A stretch of DNA of 64,000 nucleotides from Ostreococcus lucimarinus. Taxonomy: Eukaryota. The stretch lies in the NCBI GenBank assembly GCA_000092065.1, contig CP000581.1; one strand, 5' to 3'. The notes under the pieces were generated by a model, which was given only the letters and a program-made list of their open reading frames with translations, was not told the DNA's origin and did no database searches. Of the stretch, positions 571 through 56,345 are shown piece by piece (the stretch's first letter is position 1; each line of letters opens with the position of its first letter). A program made the translations under genes and the position numbers.

Positions 571-2670
571 CTAAACGTTTTCTAGGTCTCCAAGAACTCT
601 ACGGCTCGACTGGCTCGTTTGCCTGTTGACGAGCCTGTCGACGAGCGTGCGCGTGGAGTCAGCCGTGGAGGTTCCCATGGAGGTGATGGACTGCGACGCC
701 TCGGTACTGCCCGCGGCTAAATCAGAAAGCACCGCGGCGACTTTATCCGGGAAGTGATCGGCGAAGAATCCGTACTGAATCATCATCCCACGGTCCATGA
801 GTTCGTGGGCTTCCACGAGGCGCGGGGCGTATGAACCATTGGGAAGCCGGAGCAAGTGAATGAGTTGTCCCGGAGGATGCAACGGCGCCGCCATCATGGG
901 TGTCGAGTCGACTTGCGCCCGTGAGAACGTTCTGAAATCCTCGCGAAGCGCTGTAGACTCACTCGCCGCACTTTCTGGGTCAAGAACGTCAGAAATTTGC
1001 AACTTGGTGCCGTTGAACGTCATTCGCATCATCAAAGAAAACTTGTTCAGCTTTGCGTTGGTCAGCGAGTCCATCATGTCGCTACGGAGCTTCAACAACA
1101 CTGGTCCCGATAGTCGACAGAATAAATCACAGTGATGCACCGTGCTATACGTCCAAGCCTTAGTGATATTGCTTAACTTTGGACTCAACACGCCTCCAGG
1201 AGGTTCGATGCACCACACTTTCAAGTTGGGAAACTTTTTGCGAAGATGCAAGGACAACGCGGCGGCGACGCCCGCGCCCAAGGAGTGCCCAGTTAAGACC
1301 AAGTCCCAGTCGTGACAATCGACGGCGCTGCTCGGAAGCGGCGCACTCTCTGCGGACGGCTGCTCTCCTAAAATTGTCTGTTCTAAAATTCGATTCGCGT
1401 TCAAGTCCGAGAGAATAAAATTGGTCGCTCGAAAAACGCCCGAGTGCACGTGAAGATCAGAACCTTGAAGTCCTGGCTCATGTATGGCATCGGCGTTTAA
1501 CATGCACGGCTTATACATGCTATCCGTGACACAGTCTGCGATGCTCAATGTACCCCGTACCGAGAGCACCACCGCCTTGCGACGAACGTCTCGAGCAATA
1601 AAATATGGCGGTTCACCAATGCCGTTCGCCATCGACACGTAAAACAAATCATCCGACGCAATCCCCGCGCACTTTTTCAACGCTTCACGGTTCAAATCGT
1701 GCGGATCGCGATGGTCCTGCGATTTCCTCAAGCATTTTCGACAACCGCAACAACTCATGCATGCCTCGGACGAACACGCCATTCCGATGCCGGAACGCGG
1801 ATCCGCCCAAGCGAACAGCGCCCATCCGTACGCTGCGAGCGCCCATCGAGAATAATGTGCTGCATCCTCGTACATCGCGTTGAGAGACTTGTACGGCGCG
1901 AGCGCGTCCGAATCTGTTGCGAGCGGCTTACCCAACGGCTCGTTCTCGATCATGTGTCTATGCTGAATCGCGAGCAAGCCCATGCCTGCGGCGATGTCGC
2001 TCGGAACCACATCTGCGCCCTGAAAAACCTCCGCGAAACAATTTGCTACGTGACCTAACGTCCCTTGCTCCGCTAACTGCCTGTCCACTTCGGGATCCTC
2101 CGTTCTCTCTCGACGTCTGATGCACAAAACCGTCGCGATGATGTTGAAAATCTTGTACCACTTTTGATCGCTCGGTAAGTGTCCAAACATGCTAAACATC
2201 AGCATAATTCCACAGAAATGCACGCCGATGACGATGAAATTCCCAATGATGATGCTCAACACCATTCCCCGCACGCGTGCGCGATCCATGCACGCCGATA
2301 ACTCCGCATCCACAACAGTACCCAAAATTGTAAACGCAATGTCCACGGACAACAGGAACAAGTGCGCGTACAAGAAGTATGGCACCAAACGTCTCTTCTC
2401 CGGTTCTAAGATTCTCCCTCGCAGGGAGAGATGAAGCAGGATCGCCTCTACGCACAGCGCGACGAAATAACACGAGAACGTCGCGTAAAACCATGCCATC
2501 GCGTGTTCCCCGCCCGCGCAGTTTTGTCGCAACGTCCTGTGCGCGCGCTCGTACACCACCAATATGATCACGCACCACAGCGTGTGCACCGTCATCAATC
2601 CCGCCATGGGCAGCGGCAAATCATCGCTCGACAACAGCCAGTGGCGTCCGAACAAGCGAATGGCCGGCAT
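571..2670 (-). CDS. sn1-specific diacylglycerol lipase-like protein (4 TM helices + lipase class 3 domain)
   Basis: GHSLGAGVAAALSLHL nucleophile-elbow motif of class-3 lipases sits C-terminal to four hydrophobic helices (LWCVIILVVY, AMAWFYATFSCYFVALCVEAILL, VPYFLYAHLFLLSVDIAF, GMVLSIIIGNFIVIGVHFCGIMLMF). Start set at internal ATG (MPAIRLFG) because the first 119 codons of ORF 571..3027 are Arg-rich low-complexity read-through. Confidence 0.7.
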   Translation of the reverse strand: MPAIRLFGRHWLLSSDDLPLPMAGLMTVHTLWCVIILVVYERAHRTLRQNCAGGEHAMAWFYATFSCYFVALCVEAILLHLSLRGRILEPEKRRLVPYFLYAHLFLLSVDIAFTILGTVVDAELSACMDRARVRGMVLSIIIGNFIVIGVHFCGIMLMFSMFGHLPSDQKWYKIFNIIATVLCIRRRERTEDPEVDRQLAEQGTLGHVANCFAEVFQGADVVPSDIAAGMGLLAIQHRHMIENEPLGKPLATDSDALAPYKSLNAMYEDAAHYSRWALAAYGWALFAWADPRSGIGMACSSEACMSCCGCRKCLRKSQDHRDPHDLNREALKKCAGIASDDLFYVSMANGIGEPPYFIARDVRRKAVVLSVRGTLSIADCVTDSMYKPCMLNADAIHEPGLQGSDLHVHSGVFRATNFILSDLNANRILEQTILGEQPSAESAPLPSSAVDCHDWDLVLTGHSLGAGVAAALSLHLRKKFPNLKVWCIEPPGGVLSPKLSNITKAWTYSTVHHCDLFCRLSGPVLLKLRSDMMDSLTNAKLNKFSLMMRMTFNGTKLQISDVLDPESAASESTALREDFRTFSRAQVDSTPMMAAPLHPPGQLIHLLRLPNGSYAPRLVEAHELMDRGMMIQYGFFADHFPDKVAAVLSDLAAGSTEASQSITSMGTSTADSTRTLVDRLVNRQTSQSSRRVLGDLENV

Positions 2671-3179
2671 ACCGCGCGCGCGCGATCTTCCCGCGTCGCT
2701 CCCGCGCAGGCGTCTCTCGGACCGTGTGATTCGCGCGTCGCTCGCGCCTCTCGCCTCTCGCCTCGCGCGCGCGTCTCGGCGCCTCGCGCGGCGCGACGAA
2801 CGCCCGCGCCTTCGTTCGCGCGCCGCGCTCGATCGCCGCGCTCGATCGCCGCGTTCGATCGACGACGCGCGCGTCGATTTGCCGCGCAACACCATTGTTG
2901 GTCCAGAGCAAAAAGAGCGAAATTCGACCGACCGGCGTGTCGGGAAAGACGACGGCGCGCGGCAGAAGACGCCGCCACCATGGTCGCGCGCGGTGCGACG
3001 GTGTGCGTGGGAGCGCGGTGTGGACACGCCTCTTGGCGTGCGCGCGAGAGACGAACGACGAGGTGCGCGCGACTACGACACGAAACGACGAGACGACGAC
3101 GCGCGTGCTGAATTTGAAATTTCAATCGGCGCGCGAGGCTGCGCGACGATGACGCGTTCGGGTTCGCGATCGAGCGGTC

Positions 3180-6100
3180 GTGGGACGAGACAGGGCGCGA
3201 AAGACTGACGCAGATGCGGTGCCGTGCGGTGATGCCGACCTTAGGCGTGTCGATCGTGGTGGGTGGCTCGACGGCGACGCGAGACTATCGACGCGAGGCG
3301 GACGCGTCGACGCTTCGGTGGCGGAGGGCGAGACGACGTGGCGAGGGGATTCGGGAAGTGATGCGGACGATGGAACGAGCGTGCAGGATGGTAGGGAATG
3401 GTACACGTTTAAGCACGGAGAGAACGTGCGGTGGTTGGTGGAACAGAGTGGGTTAGACTGGGCCACTCTGGAGCAACTGAATCCAGACATGGATTTGACG
3501 ACGACGTTTCCGGGAGATAGAATTGTTATCCGTGGACCACCGAGTTTAAAGCCGAACGATCGTGTGGTTGCAGCAGTGGTGGCACAACCGACGTCTTCCG
3601 TCGTGGTGACGCCAAGATTATCGACGTGGAGCTCACCCGTCGCATTAGCGGGTGTGCTCATCGTGGGTATCGTCACCGGCGCAGCTTTCGCGGGGAAAAG
3701 GCGGCTATCCACGGTCATCATGGCGCTCACGGGGAACGCGGACCCACAACTCGAGGCAAAAGACAACGAAATTGACGCTCTCAGAGCCCACCTGGATGTC
3801 GCGGAACGTGATCTCACGGACATGCGAGAGAAGTGGCTGAGGAACGAACAGTCGCTGGAAAACTTGCAACAGCTCCTGGAAAGTGCGTCGCGAGCCGACG
3901 CATCTTTGAGAGACCAAATCAGCGTGCTGAAAGAGTCCCTAGACTCAAGAAATAACGATGTCAAACGTCTCGAAAGCTCGAACGCTGAAGCCAATGAGCT
4001 TGCGGAGCAGTACAAAACCAAGCTTAAGAACGCTCAAGGTGAAGTTGACGCGCTGCGGGAAACTGAGAGAAACAGTGCGTCTCAACTTGCCCAAGTCACG
4101 CAGATGACAACGCAGTACGAAGGCGATATTTTGAGTTATAAAAGTAAATTATTGGACATCGAGGCGGAGCTGATGGCTCTCAGAGAGCTCAACGACGGTT
4201 ATTCTGATGAAGCAAATACCTCAAAAGAAAAGTACAAAGAGACACTGAGCGAAATTGCCAAAGTGACAGAGTTGAATGACAAGCTCGAGGCAGAGCTTTC
4301 AAAAACGAACGAACAGGTGATAAATCATCTAAACCAGCTAGCCATTCATAAGCACGACATGGAAAAGCTGGAATTAGAACTCGCGGCTTCTCGCAACGAT
4401 CTGTCAGAGTTGACGGTTGATTTTGAAAGCGCGAATACAAAATTGAGTTCACTTACGTCTGAACTGGAAGATAGCCGATCAGAGGCACTCGCATACTCGA
4501 ATGAGCTTCAAACTGTGAAAACCGACCTCGAGATTTCGATGGACGAACTCGAAACACTCAGAAAAAGTCTTAAAGCTTCGCAAGATCACGTTTCAGAATA
4601 TGAGATCAATCTCTCGGGTTACAAAACAAAGCTCGAAATGGTTCAATCGTCGCTTGAGATATCTCGTAATGAAGCCACAAGCTATCATGATGATCTTACT
4701 TTAAATAAACGTGAACTTGAGGAGGTGCGCGATGGACTTGAGCAGATAACGAGCGAGCTACGAGCTTCAAAGACTGAAAATTCCAGCTTATCTGATGAAC
4801 TCGACTGCTTAAAAAGCGAGCTTGAAATGCTTCAATCACAACTTGCTACTGCGAATGACGAGTCCTCAACACTCTCGATCGATCTTGCAGGGATTAAAAG
4901 TAAGCTCGAAATGGCTGAAAAAGCTCTGGAAGAGTCTCGCAATCAGGCATCTGGGTATAAGGGCGAGCTGGAAGTAGCACGTAATGAGGCTGTACAATTG
5001 TCTAGCGAGCTCATGGGCTTGAAAGTTAAGGTAGACGAGTTGGAGGTAGCGCTCAATGAAACCAGCGGAGAGTCGTCGACTCTTTCCATCGACCTCGCTG
5101 GTTTCAAGAGCAAGCTAGCAATGGTCGAGGAAGCTCTCGAGCAAGCGCGCACGCAGTCCTCTGAGTATGAAGGCGAGCTCGCTCGCGCTCGCGAGGCGCT
5201 CGAGAATGAGGCAAACGAGAAGAGATCCATGGAAGAGAAGTTTTCGAAGATGTGCGAGGAGCTATCTCAGCAGGGCATGCAAGCGTCGGAGGAAGGGGGA
5301 CGCCTAGAGCGCGAGCTCGCTTACACTCGCGAGGCGCTCGAGAATGAGGCAAACGAGAAGAGATCCATGGAGGAGAAGTTTTCAAAGACGTGCGAAGAGT
5401 TATCTCAGCAGGGCATGCAGGCGTCGCAGGAAGTTGATCGCCTGCAAGGTGAGTTGCAAAAGTCTAGAACCGCACTTGATAAAGCTAACGGCGAATCTTC
5501 ACTTCTTTCCATTGACCTCGCTGGTTTCAAGAGCAAGCTAGCAATGGTCGAGGAAGCTCTCGAGCAAGCGCGCATGCAGTCCTCTGAGTATGAAGGCGAG
5601 CTCGCTCGCGCTCGCGAGGCGCTCGAGAATGAGGCAAACGAGAAGAGATCCATGGAAGAGAAGTTTTCGAAGATGTGCGAGGAGCTATCTCAGCAGGGCA
5701 TGCAAGCGTCGGAGGAAGTTGATCGCCTGCAAGGTGAGTTGCAGGCGGCGCAAGCGGCGCTCGATAGCGCGTCGGGCGAGTCGTCGACTCTTTCCATCGA
5801 CCTCACTGGTTTCAAGAGCAAGCTAGCAATGGTCGAGGAAGCTCTCGAGCAAGCGCGCACGCAGTCCTCTGAGTATGAAGGCGAGCTCGCTCGCGCTCGC
5901 GAGGCGCTCGAGAATGAGGCAAACGAGAAGAGATCCATGGAAGAGAAGTTTTCGAAGATGTGCGAGGAGCTATCTCAGCAGGGCATGCAAGCGTCGGAGG
6001 AAGGGGGACGCCTAGAGCGCGAGCTCGCTCGCGCTCGCGAGGCGCTCGAGAATGAGGCAAACGAGAAGAGATCCATGGAAGAGAAGTTTTCGAAGATGTG

Positions 6101-7805
6101 CGAGGAGCTATCTCAGCAGGGCATGCAAGCGTCGGAGGAAGTTGATCGCCTGCAAGGTGAGTTGCAGGCGGCGCAAGCGGCGCTCGATAGCGCGGTGCGG
6201 GATTCAACGGAGATTCGCATTTCTGCTGATGGCTACAAGATGAATCTTGAAGCAGCGCAATGCGAGCTTGATGCGTTACGATCGCAAAGCGGTGACACGT
6301 CATCAGACCTTACAGAATATAAGAACAAGGTTGAATCATTGCAGTCCGAGCTTTTGTCTGCCCGTGAGGACTCTATGAAAACAGCAGAGGCTTTATCGCG
6401 AGAACAAATCAAATTTCAAGGCATGGAGGAAAAGTTGGCAAATATCGTAGCATCGAGCGGGGCAGACAACGTTGAGATTGAAACTTATAAATCACGGCTT
6501 GCGAGCAGTGAATTAGAACTCGAAACTCTTAGGGTGAAAGCAGCGGTAAATGCTGAAGAAGCAGAAAAGTATCAAGTAAATCTCATCGACGCCCGTGAGG
6601 AAGTTGCAAGATTAGCCGATGAAATTGGCGAGTGGAAGAGCAAAGCAGATTCTCTCGAACACCAACTCGGTCAAGTTCAGATGGAGCACCCCGACAAAGA
6701 TGAAGATGCAGAAAAAAATCGTCAGCTTGAGGACGAGTTAGAACTCTTAAAAGAAAAAGTCTCAGCGTCATCGGCTGAAATAGAGTCATACATGGGTAAG
6801 TTGGAGCACGCGGAATCTGAACTTTCAGTGATGCGAGCTGAGATTGAAGGAGGAAAACACGAAAGATCCGAACAAAACCAGGAAGTGATCGCGCGCATGC
6901 AAATTGAAGTTAGTGCAGCAAATGAGCGAGCTGATCGCTATAAGCAGCGTTTGCTTGAGCTCGAGGAAAATATGCAGCTCAAGTTAGAATCCCTTGAGTC
7001 GATTGCTGAATTTTCTGAAACAGAGGAAGTGCGATTGCTGCAGGAACAAATTTCGAGGCTTGAGTCAGAAAACGCCGAGGCGAACTCAATGCTGAAAAAC
7101 ATGGAACAGGATATAGCGAAAATGCGTGTCTCTTCTATCGAGCCTTCTCAGTCTCCAATGTGGCTGATCGAGGAAGAGCGGCGTGACATGGAATTATCTA
7201 TGCTTGAAGCGAGACAAGCAGCACAGCTCTCATTGGCACAAGTGTCGCAGGCGGTAACCAAAATGAGACAACAAGCGCGAGGCGAGCTGGTTTCGCATGC
7301 CATCTCTTGCGAGTTCAAAGTACGCAAAGATGTTGGCGAACATCAATTCCTTTGTTTGGTAGGAAGTTGGCACGAGTGGGATGTACAGACAGCTGATTAC
7401 ATGCAGCGCGGCGCTGATGGTACCTGGCAAGTTGCCATCACGCTCTTTGCAGATGAGGCGTACGAATATAAATACTGTGTTTGCGAGGTAAATGAGCACG
7501 GTCAGCGTGTTCCAATAGAGTGGCAAGTAGGCCACAATCACGGCTTTGCCTTCGATTCAAATCTAATCGTCAATCAGAACATGAAGGCCAAGGCGCAGAT
7601 CCGAGATAAATTTCTCGCGGATCCAGCGCATACCCCAATAATCTTATTTGGGCCAAATGGTGAAAAGTTTGAGACGGGTAGTACGGCGCTGCTCCACAAC
7701 TTCTCGAATCACATCGCTGAAAGTGGATTTGAGAATTTGCGAACGAGTCTTGAGCGTTTAAATGCCATCCTCGCGAAGTCACAGCGTAAAAATCTTGAGG
7801 CGTAG
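3180..7805 (+). CDS. Giant LysM - transmembrane - coiled-coil (internally repeated) - CBM20/48-type starch-binding domain protein
   Basis: N-terminal LysM-like segment YTFKHGENVRWLVEQSGLDWATLEQLNPDM...FPGDRIVIRGPP; one TM helix WSSPVALAGVLIVGIVTGAAFAG followed by KRR; about 1150 aa of E/L/K/A-rich heptad coiled coil; C-terminal FKVRKDVGEHQFLCLVGSWHEWD...GTWQVAITL...EYKYCVCEVNEHGQRVPIEWQVGHNHGFAF matches the CBM20/CBM48 fold signature. True start uncertain (first 60 aa D/G/R-rich). Confidence 0.7.
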   Translation: MGRDRARKTDADAVPCGDADLRRVDRGGWLDGDARLSTRGGRVDASVAEGETTWRGDSGSDADDGTSVQDGREWYTFKHGENVRWLVEQSGLDWATLEQLNPDMDLTTTFPGDRIVIRGPPSLKPNDRVVAAVVAQPTSSVVVTPRLSTWSSPVALAGVLIVGIVTGAAFAGKRRLSTVIMALTGNADPQLEAKDNEIDALRAHLDVAERDLTDMREKWLRNEQSLENLQQLLESASRADASLRDQISVLKESLDSRNNDVKRLESSNAEANELAEQYKTKLKNAQGEVDALRETERNSASQLAQVTQMTTQYEGDILSYKSKLLDIEAELMALRELNDGYSDEANTSKEKYKETLSEIAKVTELNDKLEAELSKTNEQVINHLNQLAIHKHDMEKLELELAASRNDLSELTVDFESANTKLSSLTSELEDSRSEALAYSNELQTVKTDLEISMDELETLRKSLKASQDHVSEYEINLSGYKTKLEMVQSSLEISRNEATSYHDDLTLNKRELEEVRDGLEQITSELRASKTENSSLSDELDCLKSELEMLQSQLATANDESSTLSIDLAGIKSKLEMAEKALEESRNQASGYKGELEVARNEAVQLSSELMGLKVKVDELEVALNETSGESSTLSIDLAGFKSKLAMVEEALEQARTQSSEYEGELARAREALENEANEKRSMEEKFSKMCEELSQQGMQASEEGGRLERELAYTREALENEANEKRSMEEKFSKTCEELSQQGMQASQEVDRLQGELQKSRTALDKANGESSLLSIDLAGFKSKLAMVEEALEQARMQSSEYEGELARAREALENEANEKRSMEEKFSKMCEELSQQGMQASEEVDRLQGELQAAQAALDSASGESSTLSIDLTGFKSKLAMVEEALEQARTQSSEYEGELARAREALENEANEKRSMEEKFSKMCEELSQQGMQASEEGGRLERELARAREALENEANEKRSMEEKFSKMCEELSQQGMQASEEVDRLQGELQAAQAALDSAVRDSTEIRISADGYKMNLEAAQCELDALRSQSGDTSSDLTEYKNKVESLQSELLSAREDSMKTAEALSREQIKFQGMEEKLANIVASSGADNVEIETYKSRLASSELELETLRVKAAVNAEEAEKYQVNLIDAREEVARLADEIGEWKSKADSLEHQLGQVQMEHPDKDEDAEKNRQLEDELELLKEKVSASSAEIESYMGKLEHAESELSVMRAEIEGGKHERSEQNQEVIARMQIEVSAANERADRYKQRLLELEENMQLKLESLESIAEFSETEEVRLLQEQISRLESENAEANSMLKNMEQDIAKMRVSSIEPSQSPMWLIEEERRDMELSMLEARQAAQLSLAQVSQAVTKMRQQARGELVSHAISCEFKVRKDVGEHQFLCLVGSWHEWDVQTADYMQRGADGTWQVAITLFADEAYEYKYCVCEVNEHGQRVPIEWQVGHNHGFAFDSNLIVNQNMKAKAQIRDKFLADPAHTPIILFGPNGEKFETGSTALLHNFSNHIAESGFENLRTSLERLNAILAKSQRKNLEA
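5070..6190 (+). repeat. Near-identical in-frame tandem DNA repeats inside the coiled-coil gene (alternating ~138-nt and ~285-nt units)
   Basis: The block GCGAGGCGCTCGAGAATGAGGCAAACGAGAAGAGATCCATGGAAGAGAAGTTTTCGAAGATGTGCGAGGAGCTATCTCAGCAGGGCATGCAAGCGTCGGAGGAAG recurs about 5 times (near 5190, 5328, 5613, 5899, 6037). The longer unit beginning GAGTCGTCGACTCTTTCCATCGACCTCGCTGGTTTCAAGAGCAAGCTAGCAATGGTCGAGGAAGCTCTCGAGCAAGCGCGCACGCAGTCCTCTGAGTATGAAGGCGAG recurs 3 times (near 5071, 5491, 5771) with only scattered substitutions. Confidence 0.85.
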
Positions 7806-8152
7806 ATCAGTAGCAAAATGTTGGGGCGAGATTCCTTCAGGCATAGATTCCTTCAGGCTTAGACACGAAGTAGTTCTTCCTTAACAAATTCAATTTCAAA
7901 ACAAACTATAAATTTTATTTACTGAGCGGCTGCACATGTACTAAGTAATGTCGTTTAATATTCTCCTGGCGATGCGACGAGTATCCCACCTTGCGTCAAG
8001 TCTGCCCATTTCAAACACTTCACTGCACGGCGTGTCGCTACGCTTGCGGCGCGCGCGCTACGACTCTGAATTGACGCAACGTCCAGGTCGCACGCATTAG
8101 CCGAACGCGCTCCACGCGTCGTCGTGCACAGTCAAATACGCTCGACGGCGAG

Positions 8153-9469: not shown

Positions 9470-11215
9470 ATGGAGCTTGCATCGCGCGACACCGCGCGAT
9501 CGACACTGACGCGCGCGTTACCATTCGACGTATTCGACGCCGACACCGACGCACCGTCGTGCAGCGACACCGACGCCACGAACGGCTTGGCTGCGACGAA
9601 CAAACCGTTGAATCGCAGCGACGAAGACGCCGTCGTTGAGCTTCGGGCGATCGATGCAGCGCTCCGTGCGGCGCTGCACCGCGCACCACGAACGATGAAT
9701 GAAGTTGTGACGAAAGGGGCGACGCTGGATCTGTGTGCGGACCTCATAGAGCGCGAGGATGAGGCGATGCGCGCGGCGGGAGCAGGACGTCGTCGAGCGA
9801 CAAGCTCGAGCGAAACCGAACGCGAGGAAGACGTGCCATGGGGCACACCGACGAAGGCGGCGGTGGAACGATTTGCAGAAGAGCTGGAGGTGGTTCTCAA
9901 AGAGAAGGAGAACGCGGTGATTGGACTTGAGAAGACTTTGGCATCGAAGCGCGAAGCGACGCTTGCATTTGAGCAGCAAAGAGCGCGGGCAGCGCAGAGC
10001 GAAAAAGCGCTGCACTTCGCCGAAGGCGAGATTGTGAGACTATCGAAGAAGGTGAATGAGCTCTCCAAAGTTTTGGAAGGCTCGAGGGCAGAGTCCGCCC
10101 AACGTTGGGAAAAATTAAAGAAGGTAGAGAAGCGACTTGCGGAGGCGCAAGCCAAGGACGAGGAAAATCTGCGTGCGCTTGCGATGCTTCGAAAAGATTT
10201 GCAAACTGAGCGTCAAATGAACAAGTCAAAAGAAGCCGAGATATCTCGACTGCGCGATGCGTTCCGAGATGTCAGCAACGGTAAAAAGATTGAAAACGTG
10301 GGTGATGAGCAGAATTTGAAGCGAATTCAAGACCTGGAAGAAAAGATTGTTCAGTTGGCTGTTTCCGTATCAAAGCAGTCTTCTGCATCTTCAGTACCAC
10401 GACGTTCGAACGAGCGCGAGTTGAATTTGTTAGTCCACGAGCTCGCTAAAGAAGAGTTGAAATCCAGAGCTCGAGCGGACGCCGCTGAGCAACTCGTTAC
10501 TACGATGCGAGCAGAGTTAGATTCAAAGACGGTCGAAGTTATCACGCTGCGTCAGCACATCAATACTCTTGATCAAAAACATCCCGTTAGAACCATCTCA
10601 CGCGGGTCCTTAGACTCACCGCGATCGGTGTCAGTTTCTCTAGAAGAGATTGATCAGAACCTTCAACGAAGTTGCGATCGCGCCGAACAGCTTTGCCAAC
10701 GTCTTTCAACGGTGATGTCTTCTGGTGGAGCATCAACGGGTGGATATTCTCAGAGAATGATGGAAACCCCTCTTAGTGTGTCGAGCGATCGTTCAGAGGA
10801 CAAGATTCGCGAGCTTCAAGAAGCGCTTGATGATCAATCTCAGCGTCGAGACGAGGCTGAGAAACTGGCAGCCAAGGCGGCGAGTGATGCATCAGCCTTG
10901 CGAGATTTGATCACCGCAGAACGCATAGCATCTGCTGCTGCAATGATGGCTGAGTCGAGGGGCTTGACAGGAGCGTATGTCGCGCGAGGAAATACGCACA
11001 ATATGTCTCCATCAACTTCTGATGTCACATCGACACCGAGCCGTAGTCCTCGACCGTTTCAACACACACCACGAACGACGTCGTCGATCTTCGGAGGTGC
11101 TCCCGTAGGCCTTTCAAAAGAGTTGGAAGAAGCGCGGCGCACCGCTAATAAAGAGCGTAAGCGCGCGGAAGTGGCCGAGGAGACAATATCTCGATGGAGC
11201 CGTCTCGCAGATTAG
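9470..11215 (+). CDS. Hypothetical coiled-coil protein
   Basis: 581-aa ORF with long heptad-like E/K/R/L/A stretches and S/T/P-rich C-terminus; overlapping minus-strand ORFs are Ser/Ala/Arg low-complexity antisense. No recognisable catalytic domain. Confidence 0.45.
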   Translation: MELASRDTARSTLTRALPFDVFDADTDAPSCSDTDATNGLAATNKPLNRSDEDAVVELRAIDAALRAALHRAPRTMNEVVTKGATLDLCADLIEREDEAMRAAGAGRRRATSSSETEREEDVPWGTPTKAAVERFAEELEVVLKEKENAVIGLEKTLASKREATLAFEQQRARAAQSEKALHFAEGEIVRLSKKVNELSKVLEGSRAESAQRWEKLKKVEKRLAEAQAKDEENLRALAMLRKDLQTERQMNKSKEAEISRLRDAFRDVSNGKKIENVGDEQNLKRIQDLEEKIVQLAVSVSKQSSASSVPRRSNERELNLLVHELAKEELKSRARADAAEQLVTTMRAELDSKTVEVITLRQHINTLDQKHPVRTISRGSLDSPRSVSVSLEEIDQNLQRSCDRAEQLCQRLSTVMSSGGASTGGYSQRMMETPLSVSSDRSEDKIRELQEALDDQSQRRDEAEKLAAKAASDASALRDLITAERIASAAAMMAESRGLTGAYVARGNTHNMSPSTSDVTSTPSRSPRPFQHTPRTTSSIFGGAPVGLSKELEEARRTANKERKRAEVAEETISRWSRLAD

Positions 11216-35869: not shown

Positions 35870-37357
35870 TCAAGTTTCGTAACGCTGCTCGCCGAGCAAG
35901 AAAACCTTGTCCGTTCTCGACAAGTCGTGTTCGAATCCGCCATGGCCGATGCGCTCCAGGGCGTCTGCAGGAGAAATATCGAGAAGTTCGTCGCCGAGAA
36001 GGGCGCGCCAGGTGTTGAGATCGGTGATTCCCGTTTCTGGTAAGCGATTACTCGCTTGGAAAGTCAGAAGAGCCGCGGAGGTGGTGCTACCGAAGTACCA
36101 ATACTCCATGTCCTCTTCGCCCGAATCGAAACCTTGTTCGGAGAGGATGACTTGCATCTTGTGAACTTCCATACCGCCGTCGTCTTCGCGAAGGACGGGC
36201 CACTTATGAGCACCTATTTTACCGTTCGTTTCGAATGAAGCGCCTTGAGGCGCACCTCGCTCGTCGTCGTGGCCAAAAGGATCGTAATCATCCGGGGCGT
36301 AGTCCTCTTCCGCCATGACATATTTCGGGTTCGCAGTGGCCGCTTCTGCTGCGGGCGCTTCTACCGAGGGCACCTTGTCCACGACCTCTGGAATCTTGCT
36401 CTCATCGAATGCGATCGCACCCGGTGGAGGTCCCCACTTGAATGCTTCTTCACCGAGCAATGCGCGCCACGTATCCGAATCCACGAGCCCAGTCTCGGGG
36501 ATCCCAGCGTTGGCTTGGAAATACAACAACGCGACCTTCGTCGTTTCGCCGAAGAACATATCCTCCTCGTCGTCTTCCCCGGCCCAGAATCCCGCCTCGT
36601 TTAATTTGTAGTGAATCGTCGTCATCAGATAGATGTCGTCGTCATTTTTCTTGACGAGCGGCCACTCCCCCGAACGATCCGTGCCGTCGCCTCTCCACTC
36701 GCTCACGTCGAGCACGGGCTCGACAATCGGTTCGCTCGCCTCCACATCCACCGCGCCTAACCCACCACCACCAACGCCAAGCATGGCCAACATATCCGCA
36801 TCACTCTTCTCTCCCTTCACGGCGTTCATGCTCGAGCCCGCGTCGAGCGTCCCTCCTCGCGTCGTCGCCGCTCGCACCTCCTCCTTCAGCTCCCGCACCT
36901 CCTTCGTCAACGACCGAATCTCTTTCAGCAGCTCCATCTGCACTTGCGCCGCATCCAAGACTATTTCTCCTCGCTCTTCGCGTATCTCCCGCAGTTCATT
37001 ATCGATCAGCGTGCGTTCGACGCGCAGGCGCGACGTCTCCACCAACGCCGCCTCCGCCGCGTCCCCAGCCTTCTTGAGAAATCCTCGAAGCTTCTTCTTC
37101 CCTCGCGCCACCACCGCGCCGCGCGGAGCGTCCGCGCGCGCGCGTCGCGACGGCGCGAGCGTCACCGGCGTCGCCCCGTCCGCGCGCGCGCGAAGGACGC
37201 AGCGCGCGCGCGGCGTCGCGGCGTCGCCGAATCCACGCCCGACGACGACGACGGCGGCGCGCGCGACGCCTCGAGCGCGCGCCGCGCCGCGCGACGACGA
37301 CGGCGCGCGCGCCGCCGTCGATCGCGTCGACGCGGCGATGGGCGCGCGCGCGCGCAT
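35870..37357 (-). CDS. Protein with two peptidoglycan-binding (PG_binding_1) domains and transit-peptide-like N-terminus
   Basis: Two copies of the PF01471-like pattern: ...HYKLNEAGFWAGEDDEEDMFFGETTKVALLYFQANAGIPETGLVDSDTWRALLG and ...VILSEQGFDSGEEDMEYWYFGSTTSAALLTFQASNRLPETGITDLNTWRALLG. N-terminus from internal ATG MRARAPIAASTRSTAARAPSSSRGAARARG is S/T/R/A-rich. Upstream ORF codons overlap the LRR gene on the other strand. Confidence 0.6.
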   Translation of the reverse strand: MRARAPIAASTRSTAARAPSSSRGAARARGVARAAVVVVGRGFGDAATPRARCVLRARADGATPVTLAPSRRARADAPRGAVVARGKKKLRGFLKKAGDAAEAALVETSRLRVERTLIDNELREIREERGEIVLDAAQVQMELLKEIRSLTKEVRELKEEVRAATTRGGTLDAGSSMNAVKGEKSDADMLAMLGVGGGGLGAVDVEASEPIVEPVLDVSEWRGDGTDRSGEWPLVKKNDDDIYLMTTIHYKLNEAGFWAGEDDEEDMFFGETTKVALLYFQANAGIPETGLVDSDTWRALLGEEAFKWGPPPGAIAFDESKIPEVVDKVPSVEAPAAEAATANPKYVMAEEDYAPDDYDPFGHDDERGAPQGASFETNGKIGAHKWPVLREDDGGMEVHKMQVILSEQGFDSGEEDMEYWYFGSTTSAALLTFQASNRLPETGITDLNTWRALLGDELLDISPADALERIGHGGFEHDLSRTDKVFLLGEQRYET

Positions 37358-37475
37358 GTCGGAAGACGACGCGACGCGACGAGAGCGCGCGTGACAATGC
37401 CGACACCGACGCGCTGCGCGCGAGACGTCGACGCGCGACGCGCGGACGACGCGTCGAGGCGTCGAGTCGACGGCG

Positions 37476-38078
37476 ATGACGCGGTCGAGCGCGATGCGCG
37501 CGCTCGCGCGCGCGCGCGCGCGCGTCGTCGCCGCGCGCGCGCGCGGTGGGAACGTTTCGTCGTCGTCAAAGTTCGCGTCGATGACGACGACGACGACGAC
37601 GCGCCCGAGCGACGACGTCACCGCGCGCACGCTGCTCGAGGCGAACGGCAAGCGATTCGACGTCGCGATGCCGCGCGGCGTGGCGCTGCAGGCGCTGTTG
37701 CTCGCGCGAAGCGACGACTTGAAGTGCGTGGACATCATGTGTCAGTGGGTGGGGGACGCGTGCGCGTGCAGGCTCGCGCGCGCGCTCGACAGGCGAGGGG
37801 AGGCGCTCAGGGTGCTGGATGTTTCTGGGAACAGGCTGCGCGCGCTGCCGAGCGCGGTGTGGGCGATGCGGGCGCTGGAGGTGTTGGACGCGAGCGACAA
37901 CGCGTTGACGCCGGCGGACGTCCCGTTCGACGATTTGATGGACGAGACCAAGGATGTGGCGCCGAATCTCAAGGTTTTGAATTTAAGGGGGAACGTGGCG
38001 GTGATAGATGGGTTAGAGGGGCGATTGAGAGAGGTCGTGGACGCCATGGCGCGTCGCGGCGTGAAGCTCGTGTTGTAG
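37476..38078 (+). CDS. Leucine-rich-repeat protein, small
   Basis: LRVLDVSGNRLRALPSAVWAMRALEVLDASDNALT...LKVLNLRGNVAV: consecutive LxxLxLxxNxL repeats. Confidence 0.5.
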   Translation: MTRSSAMRALARARARVVAARARGGNVSSSSKFASMTTTTTTRPSDDVTARTLLEANGKRFDVAMPRGVALQALLLARSDDLKCVDIMCQWVGDACACRLARALDRRGEALRVLDVSGNRLRALPSAVWAMRALEVLDASDNALTPADVPFDDLMDETKDVAPNLKVLNLRGNVAVIDGLEGRLREVVDAMARRGVKLVL

Positions 38079-53156: not shown

Positions 53157-56100
53157 ATGCGGTCGAACGTCGCGCTCCGAGCGTCCACGACGTCCGCGCA
53201 CCGATGGTCTCGCTTTTCGTCGTCGCCGTCGTCCACGAGACGTCGCCAACATCAGCGCCAACATCACCATCTTGATGTCCAACACCGTCCTTCTCGTCCC
53301 GTTCGCGTCGCCGCCGCGCCCGCGGAGAAGCCGACGGTCGAAGAAGACACCGCGCGCGTGCTTCGCGTGCGATATCACCGCAAAGATGGCGCGTACGCGC
53401 GATGGGGCGCACACGTTTGGGGACGCGGCGCGGCGTCGCCGACGCCATGGGACGCGCCGCTTGCGGCGACGACGGATGACGCGTCGGAATGGGTGACCTT
53501 TGACGTCGAGCTCTCGGATATCTCTCGCGGTGATGGATCGGTGAGCGTGCTGATTCATAAGGGCGAGGCGCAAGACTGTCGAGTAGAGGATTTCGACGCG
53601 ACGGCGGCGCCAGAGGTGTTTTTGGTGAGCGGATATTCGAGCGCGTTCGAGACGGAGCCCGATTTGACGTCGTTGCCGAAAGGAGACATAGAAAAGTATC
53701 GCGCGATCTGGGTCGCCGAGCGCGTGATCGCGGTGCCGGGGGATTTCGCGAACGATGGGGACTCGTTCACGCTCGTGAGCTCGTCCACGGCGGATTTGAA
53801 AGTCACGGGCGAAGGCGTCGTCGGCGGCGACGACGTCGTCACCGTGGTTCGTTCGGGTGAGTTACCTTCGAGCGTGTGCGCAAAGTTTCCACACATCAAA
53901 GCTGCGGGCTATCGCGCGCTCGAAGTTCCTTCGAGCGTCAACGTGCGAGACGCGTTGAAGCGCCAAATCGCCGTAGCCGCGGTGGACGCCGCGGGTAAGC
54001 CGACGGATGCCACGGGCGTGCAGTTGCAAGGCGCGATCGATGATTTATTCGCTTACGATGGACCTCTCGGAGCGGAATTTGGAGTGAACGACAAAGTCAC
54101 GCTACGCGTGTGGGCGCCCACGGCCTTGAACGTCGCGTTGGCGTTGTTCGACGAACCCAGAGGAGAGGAGACGAGACGCGTCGTCGCGATGACGCGGGAC
54201 GAGACGTCGGGGGTGTGGAGTGCGACCGGTGACGATTTCAAGGATAAATATTACAATTTCGAAGTCACCGTATTCAACCCGACGACTGGGAAAGTGTCGA
54301 CGAACGTCGCGTCGGATCCGTACGCTCGGAGCCTCGCCGCCGACGGTCGCCGAGCGCACGTGTGCGACATTTCGCGAGACGACCTCAAACCCAAGGGATG
54401 GGAGACGTTTGAGAAGCCAAAGTTCACGCATCCCGTGGATTGTTCAATCTACGAGCTACACGTGCGAGATTTCAGCGCGTTGGATGAAACCGTGAGCGCT
54501 TCTGCGCGAGGCAAGTATTTAGCGTTCTGCGAAGAATCGAGCGTGTGCGTGTCCCATCTCAAAAAGCTCGCCGACGCCGGTCTCACGCACGTGCACCTGT
54601 TGCCGTCTTACGACTTTGGTTCCGTGCCCGAGCTCCCAGAAAATCAGCTGTCGGTAGACTTCAAAGAGTTGGCCAAATTACCACCGAATTCTCGAAAGCA
54701 ACAAGAAGAAATCAGTAAAATTGCATGGTCTGATTGCTTCAACTGGGGATACGACCCCGTGCACTACGGCGTGCCCGAAGGCAGTTACGCCACCAATCCA
54801 GACGGTCCCCGGCGCATTTTCGAGTACCGCCAGATGGTGCATGCGCTCGCCTCGAACGGATTACGCGTCATATGTGATGTGGTGTATAATCACACCTTGT
54901 CGTCCGGACCGAGTGACGTCAACAGCGTCTTGGATAAAATTGTCCCGGGGTACTACCATCGACGCAACTTTGACGGATTCATCGAGGCGAGCACGTGTTG
55001 CAACAACACGGCCAGCGAGCATTACATGATGGATCGTCTCATTGTGGACGATCTCGTGCACTGGGCGAAAGATTATAAGGTTGATGGATTCCGATTTGAT
55101 TTAATGGGGCACTTGATGCTGTCCACGATGCTTCGAGCGAAGGACGCGCTCCAATCGTTGACGCTCGAGAAGGATGGTGTCGATGGTAAATCACTGTACC
55201 TGTACGGAGAAGGATGGGATTACGCCGAGGTGGAAAAAGGTCGCGTCGGCAAGAATGCATCGCAGCTAAATTTGGCTCACACTGGTATCGGAAGCTTTAA
55301 CGACCGCGTCCGCGAGGGTTGCATCGGAGGCAGTCCCTTTGGCGATCCTCGCATGCAAGGTTTCCTCACGGGCTTGTACTACACCCCCAACGGCGCCGTC
55401 GATCAAGGAGACCAAGACTCCCAACGCTATAGAATGATGGAGGACGGCGAGAAGATAATCGCCGCGCTCGCTGGAAACGTCCGTGATTTTGTCTTTGTCA
55501 ATCGCCACGGCGTCGAGGTTCCGTCGAGTTCGGCGGCTTGGCCAGACTCAAACGTTGCCTACGCGGGCGAACCGGAAGAAACGGTGAACTACGTCAGCGC
55601 GCACGATAACGAAACCCTATTCGATTGCATCATGTTAAGAGCGGCGGCGTCTGTGTCTCTGGAACAAAGGTGCCGAATCAATCATTTAGCGACGGCGATT
55701 GTGGCGTTGTCGCAAGGCGTGCCATTCTTCCACGCGGGCGACGAAATCTTACGGAGTAAATCTTTAGACCGAGACTCGTACTCCAGCGGTGACTGGTTCA
55801 ATAGGCTGGACTACTCTGGGGACACGCACAACTTCGGCGTCGGGTTGCCCGGGGAGCAAAAGAACGGCGATAGATACGACTTCATCACGCCCATGCTCGC
55901 CGATACGTCGATGCGCCCCTCGAAAGAGTTCATCGAAGAGGCGACGAGAAACTTTTGCGAACTTCTGAGCATCCGTCAATCGACGCCACTGTTGCGTCTT
56001 CAAACCACGCGAGACATTCAGCGTCGCATGAAGTTTTATAACCGCGGACCGGCGCAAACGCCTGGGCTCATCATCGCTAGTATCAACGACGGCGACGCGT

Positions 56101-56345
56101 CCACGCCTGGGTTACCATCGCTCGACGCGAACTACAAGCGCGTCGTGCTCGCGTTCAACGCCACTCCGAACGAAATTTCACATCACGAGGCTGGGCTTAA
56201 AGTTGATTTCGCTGGCGTCGATCTCGAATTACATCCGCTCGTCGGCGGCGTCACCGCGGACGCCGTCGCGATGAGGAGCGTCTTCATCGAAGGCGTTCCC
56301 ACGATTCCTCCGTACACGTGGACCGTGTTCGTACAGCATAGATAA
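53157..56345 (+). CDS. Pullulanase / limit dextrinase-type starch debranching enzyme (GH13), plastid presequence
   Basis: 1062 aa; CBM48/N-domain then the GH13 catalytic barrel with the typical pullulanase blocks YNWGYDPVHYGVPEGSYAT, GLRVICDVVYNHT, DGFRFDLMGH, YLYGEGWDY, YVSAHDNETLFD. N-terminus MRSNVALRASTTSAHRWSRFSSSPSS is cTP-like. Confidence 0.85.
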   Translation: MRSNVALRASTTSAHRWSRFSSSPSSTRRRQHQRQHHHLDVQHRPSRPVRVAAAPAEKPTVEEDTARVLRVRYHRKDGAYARWGAHVWGRGAASPTPWDAPLAATTDDASEWVTFDVELSDISRGDGSVSVLIHKGEAQDCRVEDFDATAAPEVFLVSGYSSAFETEPDLTSLPKGDIEKYRAIWVAERVIAVPGDFANDGDSFTLVSSSTADLKVTGEGVVGGDDVVTVVRSGELPSSVCAKFPHIKAAGYRALEVPSSVNVRDALKRQIAVAAVDAAGKPTDATGVQLQGAIDDLFAYDGPLGAEFGVNDKVTLRVWAPTALNVALALFDEPRGEETRRVVAMTRDETSGVWSATGDDFKDKYYNFEVTVFNPTTGKVSTNVASDPYARSLAADGRRAHVCDISRDDLKPKGWETFEKPKFTHPVDCSIYELHVRDFSALDETVSASARGKYLAFCEESSVCVSHLKKLADAGLTHVHLLPSYDFGSVPELPENQLSVDFKELAKLPPNSRKQQEEISKIAWSDCFNWGYDPVHYGVPEGSYATNPDGPRRIFEYRQMVHALASNGLRVICDVVYNHTLSSGPSDVNSVLDKIVPGYYHRRNFDGFIEASTCCNNTASEHYMMDRLIVDDLVHWAKDYKVDGFRFDLMGHLMLSTMLRAKDALQSLTLEKDGVDGKSLYLYGEGWDYAEVEKGRVGKNASQLNLAHTGIGSFNDRVREGCIGGSPFGDPRMQGFLTGLYYTPNGAVDQGDQDSQRYRMMEDGEKIIAALAGNVRDFVFVNRHGVEVPSSSAAWPDSNVAYAGEPEETVNYVSAHDNETLFDCIMLRAAASVSLEQRCRINHLATAIVALSQGVPFFHAGDEILRSKSLDRDSYSSGDWFNRLDYSGDTHNFGVGLPGEQKNGDRYDFITPMLADTSMRPSKEFIEEATRNFCELLSIRQSTPLLRLQTTRDIQRRMKFYNRGPAQTPGLIIASINDGDASTPGLPSLDANYKRVVLAFNATPNEISHHEAGLKVDFAGVDLELHPLVGGVTADAVAMRSVFIEGVPTIPPYTWTVFVQHR

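Follow-up and report, generated by a model that had tools for sequence, protein, structure and literature searches.

A 64,000-nucleotide (nt) stretch of contig CP000581.1 from the green alga Ostreococcus lucimarinus (hereafter the window) carries a gene for a very large protein in which a LysM-like module, a single transmembrane (TM) helix, a long coiled-coil rod and a C-terminal CBM20 starch-binding domain follow one another in one chain. The gene was listed as an open reading frame (ORF) at positions 3180-7805 of the plus strand, with 1541 codons counted from a GTG. Its architecture is real, conserved and previously undescribed; it is allied to the non-enzymatic starch tethers and is a member of none of the families with which it was compared. 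The orthologue search recovered the same order of domains in five related syntenic lineages, each with an uninterrupted frame that retains the LysM-like module, the TM helix, the rod and the CBM20. The domain order given in the original prediction therefore holds, its N- and C-terminal parts belong to a single gene as assumed there, and the remark that this arrangement was not recognised from characterised proteins agrees with our literature search, which found no description of LysM, TM, coiled coil and CBM20 in one protein. The features of the gene are as follows, with residues numbered along the revised 1547-residue model and slashes marking splice sites.

2980 to 3062, plus strand: predicted exon 1, 83 nt, with its ATG in the context gccaccATGG, encoding MVARGATVCVGARCGHASWRARERRTT and two nt of the next codon
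3063 to 3244, plus strand: predicted intron, 182 nt, with donor gag/GTGCGC, a branch-point-like GACTGAC motif at 3203-3209 and acceptor CCGACCTTAG/g
3245 to 7805, plus strand: exon 2, an open frame ending with the stop codon at 7803-7805, which together with exon 1 gives the 1547-residue protein
3402 to 3533, plus strand: LysM-like module, residues 81-124, from profile, fold model and Pfam matches of orthologues
3630 to 3704, plus strand: TM helix SSPVALAGVLIVGIVTGAAFAG (residues 157-178) with its conserved basic flank KRR, from hydropathy
3729 to 7211, plus strand: coiled-coil rod of about 1160 residues, from a heptad test, the scarcity of prolines and generic coiled-coil Pfam matches
5169 to 6161, plus strand: tandem coding repeat within the rod, made of 46-residue A modules and 49-residue B modules in the order BAABABAA, with Tandem Repeats Finder periods of 138 and 285 nt
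7296 to 7616, plus strand: CBM20 starch-binding domain, residues 1379-1485, from Pfam, profile and Foldseek
7617 to 7802, plus strand: C-terminal extension of 62 residues, ADPAHTPIILFGPNGEKFETGSTALLH followed by a predicted helix, nearly invariant among orthologues

Profile and fold comparisons make a solid case that the C-terminal domain is a genuine CBM20. The C-terminal fragment matches Pfam CBM_20 (PF00686) at 24.7 bits against a cut-off of 23.3 (21.4 bits with the whole protein as query), and the scores rise to 27.7 bits in orthologues and to 49.7 bits in distant family members. By comparison, CBM_48 reaches 15.1 bits (E 0.03) on the same fragment against a cut-off of 22.4, so that of the two domain types first suggested for the C-terminus, CBM20 stands and CBM48 does not. 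A family profile built from 16 diverse C-terminal modules (A3) aligns with the starch-binding domain of A. niger glucoamylase (1ac0) at E 9.6e-10, covering residues 4-107 of 108, and with the CBM20 of STBD1 at E 1.6e-5. The equivalents of the glucoamylase site-1 residues W543, K578, W590 and N595 are W1406, K1437, W1454 and N1459, all four of them invariant in the 16 diverse members. Consistent with these alignments, a Foldseek search with the AlphaFold2 (AF2) model of the C-terminus returned as its best PDB matches the CBM20 domains 2z0b (GDE5) and 8x8k (STBD1 with maltotetraose), with a probability of 1.0. The domain would thus be expected to bind starch. It had been placed in the last 110 residues of the protein; instead, it is followed by the conserved extension, which begins directly after the last CBM20 strand (..AQIRDKF). 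The segment ADPAHTPIILFGPNGEKFETGSTALLH gave no matches in Pfam or the PDB, and the model of the extension, with a predicted local distance difference test (pLDDT) score below 50, supports no fold assignment.

The TM helix is the single strongly hydrophobic segment of the protein (residues 147-175 in the numbering of the 3180 ORF; Kyte-Doolittle hydropathy up to 2.26). The helix and the motif [KR]xRL[SA]T that follows it are conserved across all lineages. Beyond it, only four prolines occur between residues 186 and 1345 of the same numbering, and 95% of model residues 190-1350 fall within qualifying heptad windows (28 residues with at least 75% hydrophobic a and d positions), as against 41 ± 6% in composition-matched shuffles. 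At 0.1485 nm per residue, the fully extended rod would measure about 172 nm, with a range of about 130-200 nm among alleles. Pfam matches of the rod to Filament, Fez1, WEMBL, CCDC39 and others, every one under its cut-off, were discarded as composition-driven noise.

The length of the rod varies within the species. The repeat modules are coding units of 138 nt (A, which contains ALENEANEKRSMEEKFSKMCEELSQQGMQAS) and 147 nt (B). Counted from the same codon, gap-free conspecific assemblies hold 1259, 1541 (the window), 1636, 1682, 1682 and 1728 codons (loci compared: L008, L009, L011, L013 and L015), and these alleles differ solely in the number and order of their A and B modules. The other conspecific arrangements are BA, BAABABABAA, BAABABAABAA and BAABAABAABAA, and the sister lineage carries one to three A copies. 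The shortest allele (1259 codons) may represent a collapsed assembly; megabase-scale conspecific contigs agree on 1636-1682 codons. The repeat breaks many short-read assemblies, leaving 100-N gaps in L006, L007, L010 and L014 and a 1-nt frameshift in L012. A separate 16-nt tandem repeat of 2.2 copies (AGATTCCTTCAGGCAT) lies outside the coding sequence at 7829-7863, 24 nt past the stop codon.

The N-terminal module is best described as LysM-like, an assignment supported by predicted fold and remote homology, with the window protein itself below the curated threshold. Pfam LysM (PF01476) left the N-terminus of the window protein unmatched even at E 10 and hence below its curated cut-off. Among the orthologues, three of the five lineages are matched, with scores of 20.2-20.4 bits against a cut-off of 20.9 and a best E of 3.4e-5. 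The LysM assignment of the original prediction therefore fails in a direct Pfam test of the window protein and is upheld by the fold and by the profile of its orthologues. When the N-terminal profile was compared with solved structures, LysM domains ranked first (5bum, the LysM of chitinase A, at E 0.017; also those of intimin and autolysin), and in a database of 5.8 billion sequences the profile found a Pfam-annotated LysM protein at E 4e-7. The AF2 model adopts a beta-alpha-alpha-beta (E-H-H-E) arrangement; despite its low confidence, its approximately 30 top Foldseek matches in the PDB are nearly all LysM domains, with a probability of up to 0.98 and a root-mean-square deviation of 1.9 Å over 42 residues. 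The rate of nonsynonymous substitution (dN) in the module is 0.18-0.26 with synonymous substitution (dS) saturated, and dN/dS is 0.12 where computable, indicating purifying selection.

The start of the gene differs from that of the listed ORF. The original prediction took 3180 as the gene start; most likely, however, the gene begins with the exon at 2980-3062 followed by the intron at 3063-3244, and the first 65 nt of the 3180 ORF are intron. The first ATG of the listed frame is codon 104, and the frame is closed on its 5' side by a stop at 3150. A sequencing error does not account for the lack of an ATG, because eight of ten independent conspecific assemblies are identical in this 5' region and the other two carry one mismatch; three of the five related lineages pose the same problem of a missing start. 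The N-terminal profile picked up a 190-residue protein (P0231) encoded on a 1140-nt contig of a sister lineage (L022). This contig aligns with the genomic locus L020 in two blocks, 2371-2481 and 2621-3645, and is without exactly 141 nt of it; the boundaries of the missing segment are aag/GTGCGA and TATGTAG/a, and a GACTAAC motif lies 28 nt 5' of the acceptor. L022 is therefore a spliced transcript. In addition, a 4-nt indel between two strains falls within this sister-lineage intron. The 5' layout of the window matches that of L020, with an ATG at 2980, a first exon of equal length and phase (83 nt), a donor at 3063, a branch-like motif and an acceptor at 3244. Equivalent donor and branch-point signals are present in L002, L016 and L017, and a short first exon is found in all five lineages, verified by the transcript in one of them. 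In the window, the predicted splice would join 3062 to 3245 (junction AGACGAACGACGAG/GCGTGTCGATCGTG), and the translation of the resulting 1547-residue model, which begins MVARGATVCVGARCGHASWRARERRTTRRVDRGGW, contains no internal stops. A simple ORF call thus overlooks a 5' exon that alters the predicted compartment of the protein.

Three other starts were considered and rejected. Loss of an ATG (AAG at 3201-3203 as compared with ATG ACT AAC in L001) was dropped because of L022, which shows that ACTAAC is the branch point within the 141-nt intron. An ATG at 3149 combined with a 34-nt mini-intron was dropped on the same splicing evidence. Finally, a start at Met104 (3489) would truncate the LysM-like module and is rejected because that module is conserved and under purifying selection; no such product occurs among the recorded proteins.

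Several listed frames overlap the gene. Upstream, on the minus strand, the ORF of a Lipase_3 protein at 571-3027 extends to 3027, and the start that agrees with the sister lineages is MAGLM.. (an ATG on the complementary strand at 2607-2609). The 818-residue Lipase_3 ORF and the overlapping 214-residue plus-strand ORF at 2564-3208 are therefore over-extensions. Within the gene, the minus-strand ORFs at 3122-4021, 5812-6303 and 7230-7541 are called by some metagenome pipelines (including a 299-residue call in L010) and are most likely spurious.

The whole architecture is common to 94 proteins of 1047-1317 residues, with P0098 representing the fifth lineage. The five lineages share the gene order S6PP, NifU, Lipase_3 (minus strand), the coiled-coil gene (plus), isochorismatase-guanylate cyclase (minus), TIR_2 (plus) and Sulfotransfer_2 (plus). 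The comparison was extended to 137 representatives by an exhaustive search with a profile of the C-terminal module. In about 45 of the 137, the CBM20 is retained along with the motif P[ND]P..PI.L...G...E.GST.LL of the extension, in most cases preceded by one hydrophobic helix and a coiled coil; among these family members, the LysM-like module is restricted to the five syntenic lineages. At the level of sequence, a wider unnamed family can be defined by the CBM20-plus-extension unit, preceded in the chain by a TM helix and a coiled coil. Three of its members from a marine contig of 62.7% GC (P0099, P0101 and P0103) start with a long Arg-rich presequence and continue with a hydrophobic stretch whose last residues are A-x-A, an acidic segment, a TM helix, a coiled coil and a CBM20, a pattern that appears typical of thylakoid-targeted proteins. 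The same CBM20-plus-extension unit is found at the C-terminus of P0123 (4091 residues) and P0125 (4842 residues), with 4-9 predicted TM helices and thousands of further residues ahead of it.

We tentatively propose, as a reading that is possible and somewhat short of probable, that the protein is plastid-targeted, spans the membrane once and links starch to a chloroplast membrane, either thylakoid or inner envelope, as a long tether. The revised N-terminus, MVARGATVCVGARCGHASWRARERRTTRR, which includes the exon 1 predicted by homology, has a net charge of +7 over its first 45 residues, is Arg-rich and rich in hydroxyl and Ala residues, and is similar to the presequence of a pullulanase encoded in the same window; it may function as a plastid transit peptide. 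The segment between this presequence and the TM helix, by comparison, has a net charge of -7. We infer the topology and the tether role from such features. Because the basic residues directly after the TM helix are conserved, the positive-inside rule would orient the C-terminal part towards the stroma. The TM helix would anchor the protein in a chloroplast membrane after import, with the basic flank, the C-terminal CBM20 and the rod of about 170 nm, which is probably a parallel dimer, in the stroma, where the CBM20 could use its conserved site 1 to hold a starch granule at the surface. The LysM-like module and the acidic N-terminal tail that carries it would then lie across the membrane, in the lumen or the intermembrane space. 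The rod would serve as a spacer whose length could be altered by the gain or loss of 46- and 49-residue modules.

Starch in green algae is plastidial. This location, together with the invariant site 1 of the CBM20, the basic pullulanase-like presequence, the thylakoid-type relatives and the pullulanase of the window, leads us to favour the plastid tether. Known proteins in which a starch-binding CBM is joined to, or works with, a localising element (SAGA1/2, PMST, and PTST2 with MFP1) provide precedents for such a role. A starch-binding domain in the cytosol had seemed paradoxical, and the corrected gene model largely resolves this. The corrected model also brings forward a fallback in the original prediction, a granule tether in case the true N-terminus is a transit peptide, which is now the better-supported reading because of the basic charge of the revised N-terminus and its likeness to the pullulanase presequence. 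The dimensions of the rod are compatible with the geometry of the O. tauri cell and its granule: the cell measures 1-2 micrometres, the chloroplast takes up about half of its volume, and a single central granule is stretched so that it spans the plane along which the plastid divides (PMC1939878). In Ostreococcus there is exactly one granule, which is elongated and split when the plastid divides (PMC1939878). The plant granule machinery of SS4, PTST2, MFP1 and MRC is reported to be absent from chlorophytes.

A number of observations speak against parts of this proposal. Site 2 of the CBM20 is only partly kept, with the equivalent of W563 present and those of Tyr527 (Y527) and Tyr556 (Y556) absent. 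The AF2 models are of low confidence, with a mean pLDDT of 58 for the C-terminus (70-80 in the beta-sandwich) and 48 for the LysM-like module. As for the first exon, the window splice junction was not matched in either of two pattern scans of contigs from JGI metagenomes, nor did a conspecific transcript turn up when proteins were searched with the spliced N-terminus. Acidic residues appear in the presequence from position 23, as compared with position 40 for the first one in the pullulanase. It would be unusual, moreover, for an N-terminal tail that is folded and about 100 residues long to cross a plastid membrane in a protein lacking a cleavable signal peptide. The LysM, if placed in the lumen or intermembrane space, would also be left without an obvious ligand, because Ostreococcus and Bathycoccus retain only DDL and MURE of the peptidoglycan pathway (PMC4815162).

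Some of these points would fit a different membrane. The protein might instead be a signal-anchored protein outside the plastid interior, in the endoplasmic reticulum (ER), the plasma membrane or the chloroplast outer envelope, with the LysM luminal or extracellular and with the rod and CBM20 in the cytosol, binding cytosolic glucans. We consider this unlikely. In a membrane of ER type or in the outer envelope, the positive-inside rule would indeed leave the C-terminal part in the cytosol; LysM domains usually face extracytoplasmic glycans; and the CBM20 of STBD1, an ER-anchored protein that binds cytosolic glycogen, is among the top structural and sequence matches. In addition, given its early acidic residues, the presequence is not a textbook transit peptide. 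However, no signal peptide is present, and the 156 residues that precede the TM helix are long for an N-out signal anchor. The new first exon, furthermore, provides a basic organelle-type presequence in all five lineages, distant relatives that share the C-terminal module have clear Arg-rich presequences, and the starch to be bound lies in the plastid. The original prediction had likewise placed the LysM outside or in a lumen and the CBM20 in the cytosol; it took the start of the listed ORF for the N-terminus, and is not supported by the revised gene model with its added 5' exon and basic presequence.

Another possibility, rather improbable in our judgement, accepts the membrane anchor and drops the starch: the CBM20-like domain would have lost alpha-glucan binding, and the protein would be a membrane-attached structural filament that spaces thylakoids or organelles, with its C-terminal module making protein-protein contacts. 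The borderline CBM_20 score of the window protein and the incomplete site 2 are in keeping with such a loss, as are the strongly conserved extension and the occurrence of the module in giant multi-TM proteins. Without glucan binding, however, the invariance of the two Trp, the Lys and the Asn of site 1 in 16 diverse members is hard to explain, and distant members reach CBM_20 scores of up to 49.7 bits. That the gene is a prediction artefact, with the LysM/TM and CBM20 parts drawn from separate genes, or an SMC-type ATPase, is extremely improbable: one JGI record does label an orthologue a 'chromosome segregation ATPase' and some metagenome pipelines split the gene, but the frame is unbroken in five lineages and in several gap-free conspecific assemblies, the splits fall at assembly gaps (N runs) or at the 1-nt frameshift in repeat DNA, and the ATPase label is rejected, as the protein has neither a Walker A motif nor a Pfam match to an SMC domain.

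Comparison of the plastid tether proposed here with known systems reveals likenesses to several of them. SAGA1 and SAGA2 of Chlamydomonas and PMST of Chlorella fuse a CBM20 to a long Rubisco-binding region that localises starch to the pyrenoid. They resemble the window protein in carrying a CBM20 on a very long non-enzymatic region that is proposed to fix starch at a defined chloroplast site. In these proteins, however, the CBM20 is N-terminal, Rubisco-binding motifs are present and a LysM is absent, whereas the window protein has a C-terminal CBM20 and a TM helix as its localising element. The Rubisco-binding motif [DN]W[RK]xx[LIVA] is absent from the window protein, and its BLAST comparison with the CBM20 of SAGA1 is not significant (E 0.7). 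BSG1 of Chlamydomonas combines a coiled coil with a CBM20 and is required for new stromal granules. Compared by description, it is likewise a non-enzymatic coiled-coil and CBM20 protein that affects granule formation; no TM helix or LysM is reported for it.

In plants, MFP1 has a transit peptide, a TM helix and a thylakoid attachment, and PTST2 has a coiled coil. Arabidopsis MFP1 is a coiled-coil plastidial protein that sets the site of granule initiation within the chloroplast, and PTST2 carries a CBM48. Together, the two supply the functional parts that are found here in a single polypeptide, MFP1 being compared by description. They are, however, two proteins with a CBM48 and no LysM, as compared with one chain and a CBM20 in the window. 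The window protein also falls outside the PTST family, whose members have a CBM48, a short coiled coil and a soluble stromal location; by comparison, it has a TM helix and a 1160-residue rod, and its CBM_48 score lies under the cut-off. Animal STBD1 shares the combination of a membrane anchor and a C-terminal CBM20 that ties glucan to a membrane, but it is short, with its TM helix at the extreme N-terminus, and has neither a coiled-coil rod nor a LysM. For the N-terminal half, the closest likeness is to PPASP, which also joins one TM helix to one LysM in a protein of the plant lineage. PPASP is small, however, with the TM helix first and the LysM C-terminal, the reverse of the order seen here, and it has no rod and no CBM. 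Known from streptophytes, it occurs together with the plastid peptidoglycan pathway, and no copy was detected in prasinophytes (PMC4815162).

What is new here is an undescribed conserved architecture and an unnamed CBM20-plus-extension family. They bear on the question of how starch granules are initiated, positioned and inherited in green algae that lie outside the land-plant line. A single chain with a membrane anchor, a rod of 130-200 nm and a starch-binding domain would be a concrete candidate for granule positioning and inheritance in a one-granule alga, and its LysM-like module is an addition to a plastid-type protein in an alga that does not synthesise peptidoglycan. Going further, one may speculate that the protein holds the single granule at a fixed distance from the envelope or thylakoids and ensures that it is shared at plastid division, that the LysM reads an N-acetylglucosamine (GlcNAc)-type glycan or a partner at the division site, and that the 46- and 49-residue modules set the spacing; this fuller scenario is doubtful, and we offer it as quite unlikely in its entirety.

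The surroundings of the gene are those of a compact eukaryotic genome. The window has a GC content of 58%, compact and nearly intron-free genes, and eukaryotic housekeeping genes that include UFL1, PIG-M, a SKI2-type helicase and USP. A search of viral contigs found no relative. Exact copies of the neighbouring sulfotransferase protein were found in 1271 blocks of the public assembly collection searched, and among the matching records are contigs from Tara Oceans and other marine metagenomes. In the window strain, the coiled-coil gene is separated from the sulfotransferase gene by a 347-nt spacer (7806-8152) that contains neither the isochorismatase-guanylate cyclase gene nor the SAM/TIR_2 gene. 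These genes show a presence/absence polymorphism: conspecific L011 has the cyclase gene, conspecific L003 has the TIR gene, and the sister lineages (L001, L002, L016 and L017) carry both. On the other side of this spacer, a plus-strand ORF at 9470-11215 encodes a coiled-coil-like protein of 581 residues that is rich in Glu, Lys and Ala and has no Pfam match; it adjoins the sulfotransferase gene in all conspecific contigs.

Two further genes of the window recall the domains discussed above. The pullulanase-type debranching enzyme is encoded at 53157-56345 on the plus strand; it contains PUD, Pullulanase_N2, CBM_48 and Pullul_strch_C, is of plastid type with a Ser/Arg-rich presequence, and is a second starch-related gene within the same 64 kb. 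At 35870-37738 on the minus strand, a 621-residue protein with a transit-peptide-like N-terminus carries two PG_binding_1 (PF01471) domains (E 2.7e-21). With the LysM-like module, it brings to two the 'peptidoglycan-binding' folds without an obvious ligand in this alga.

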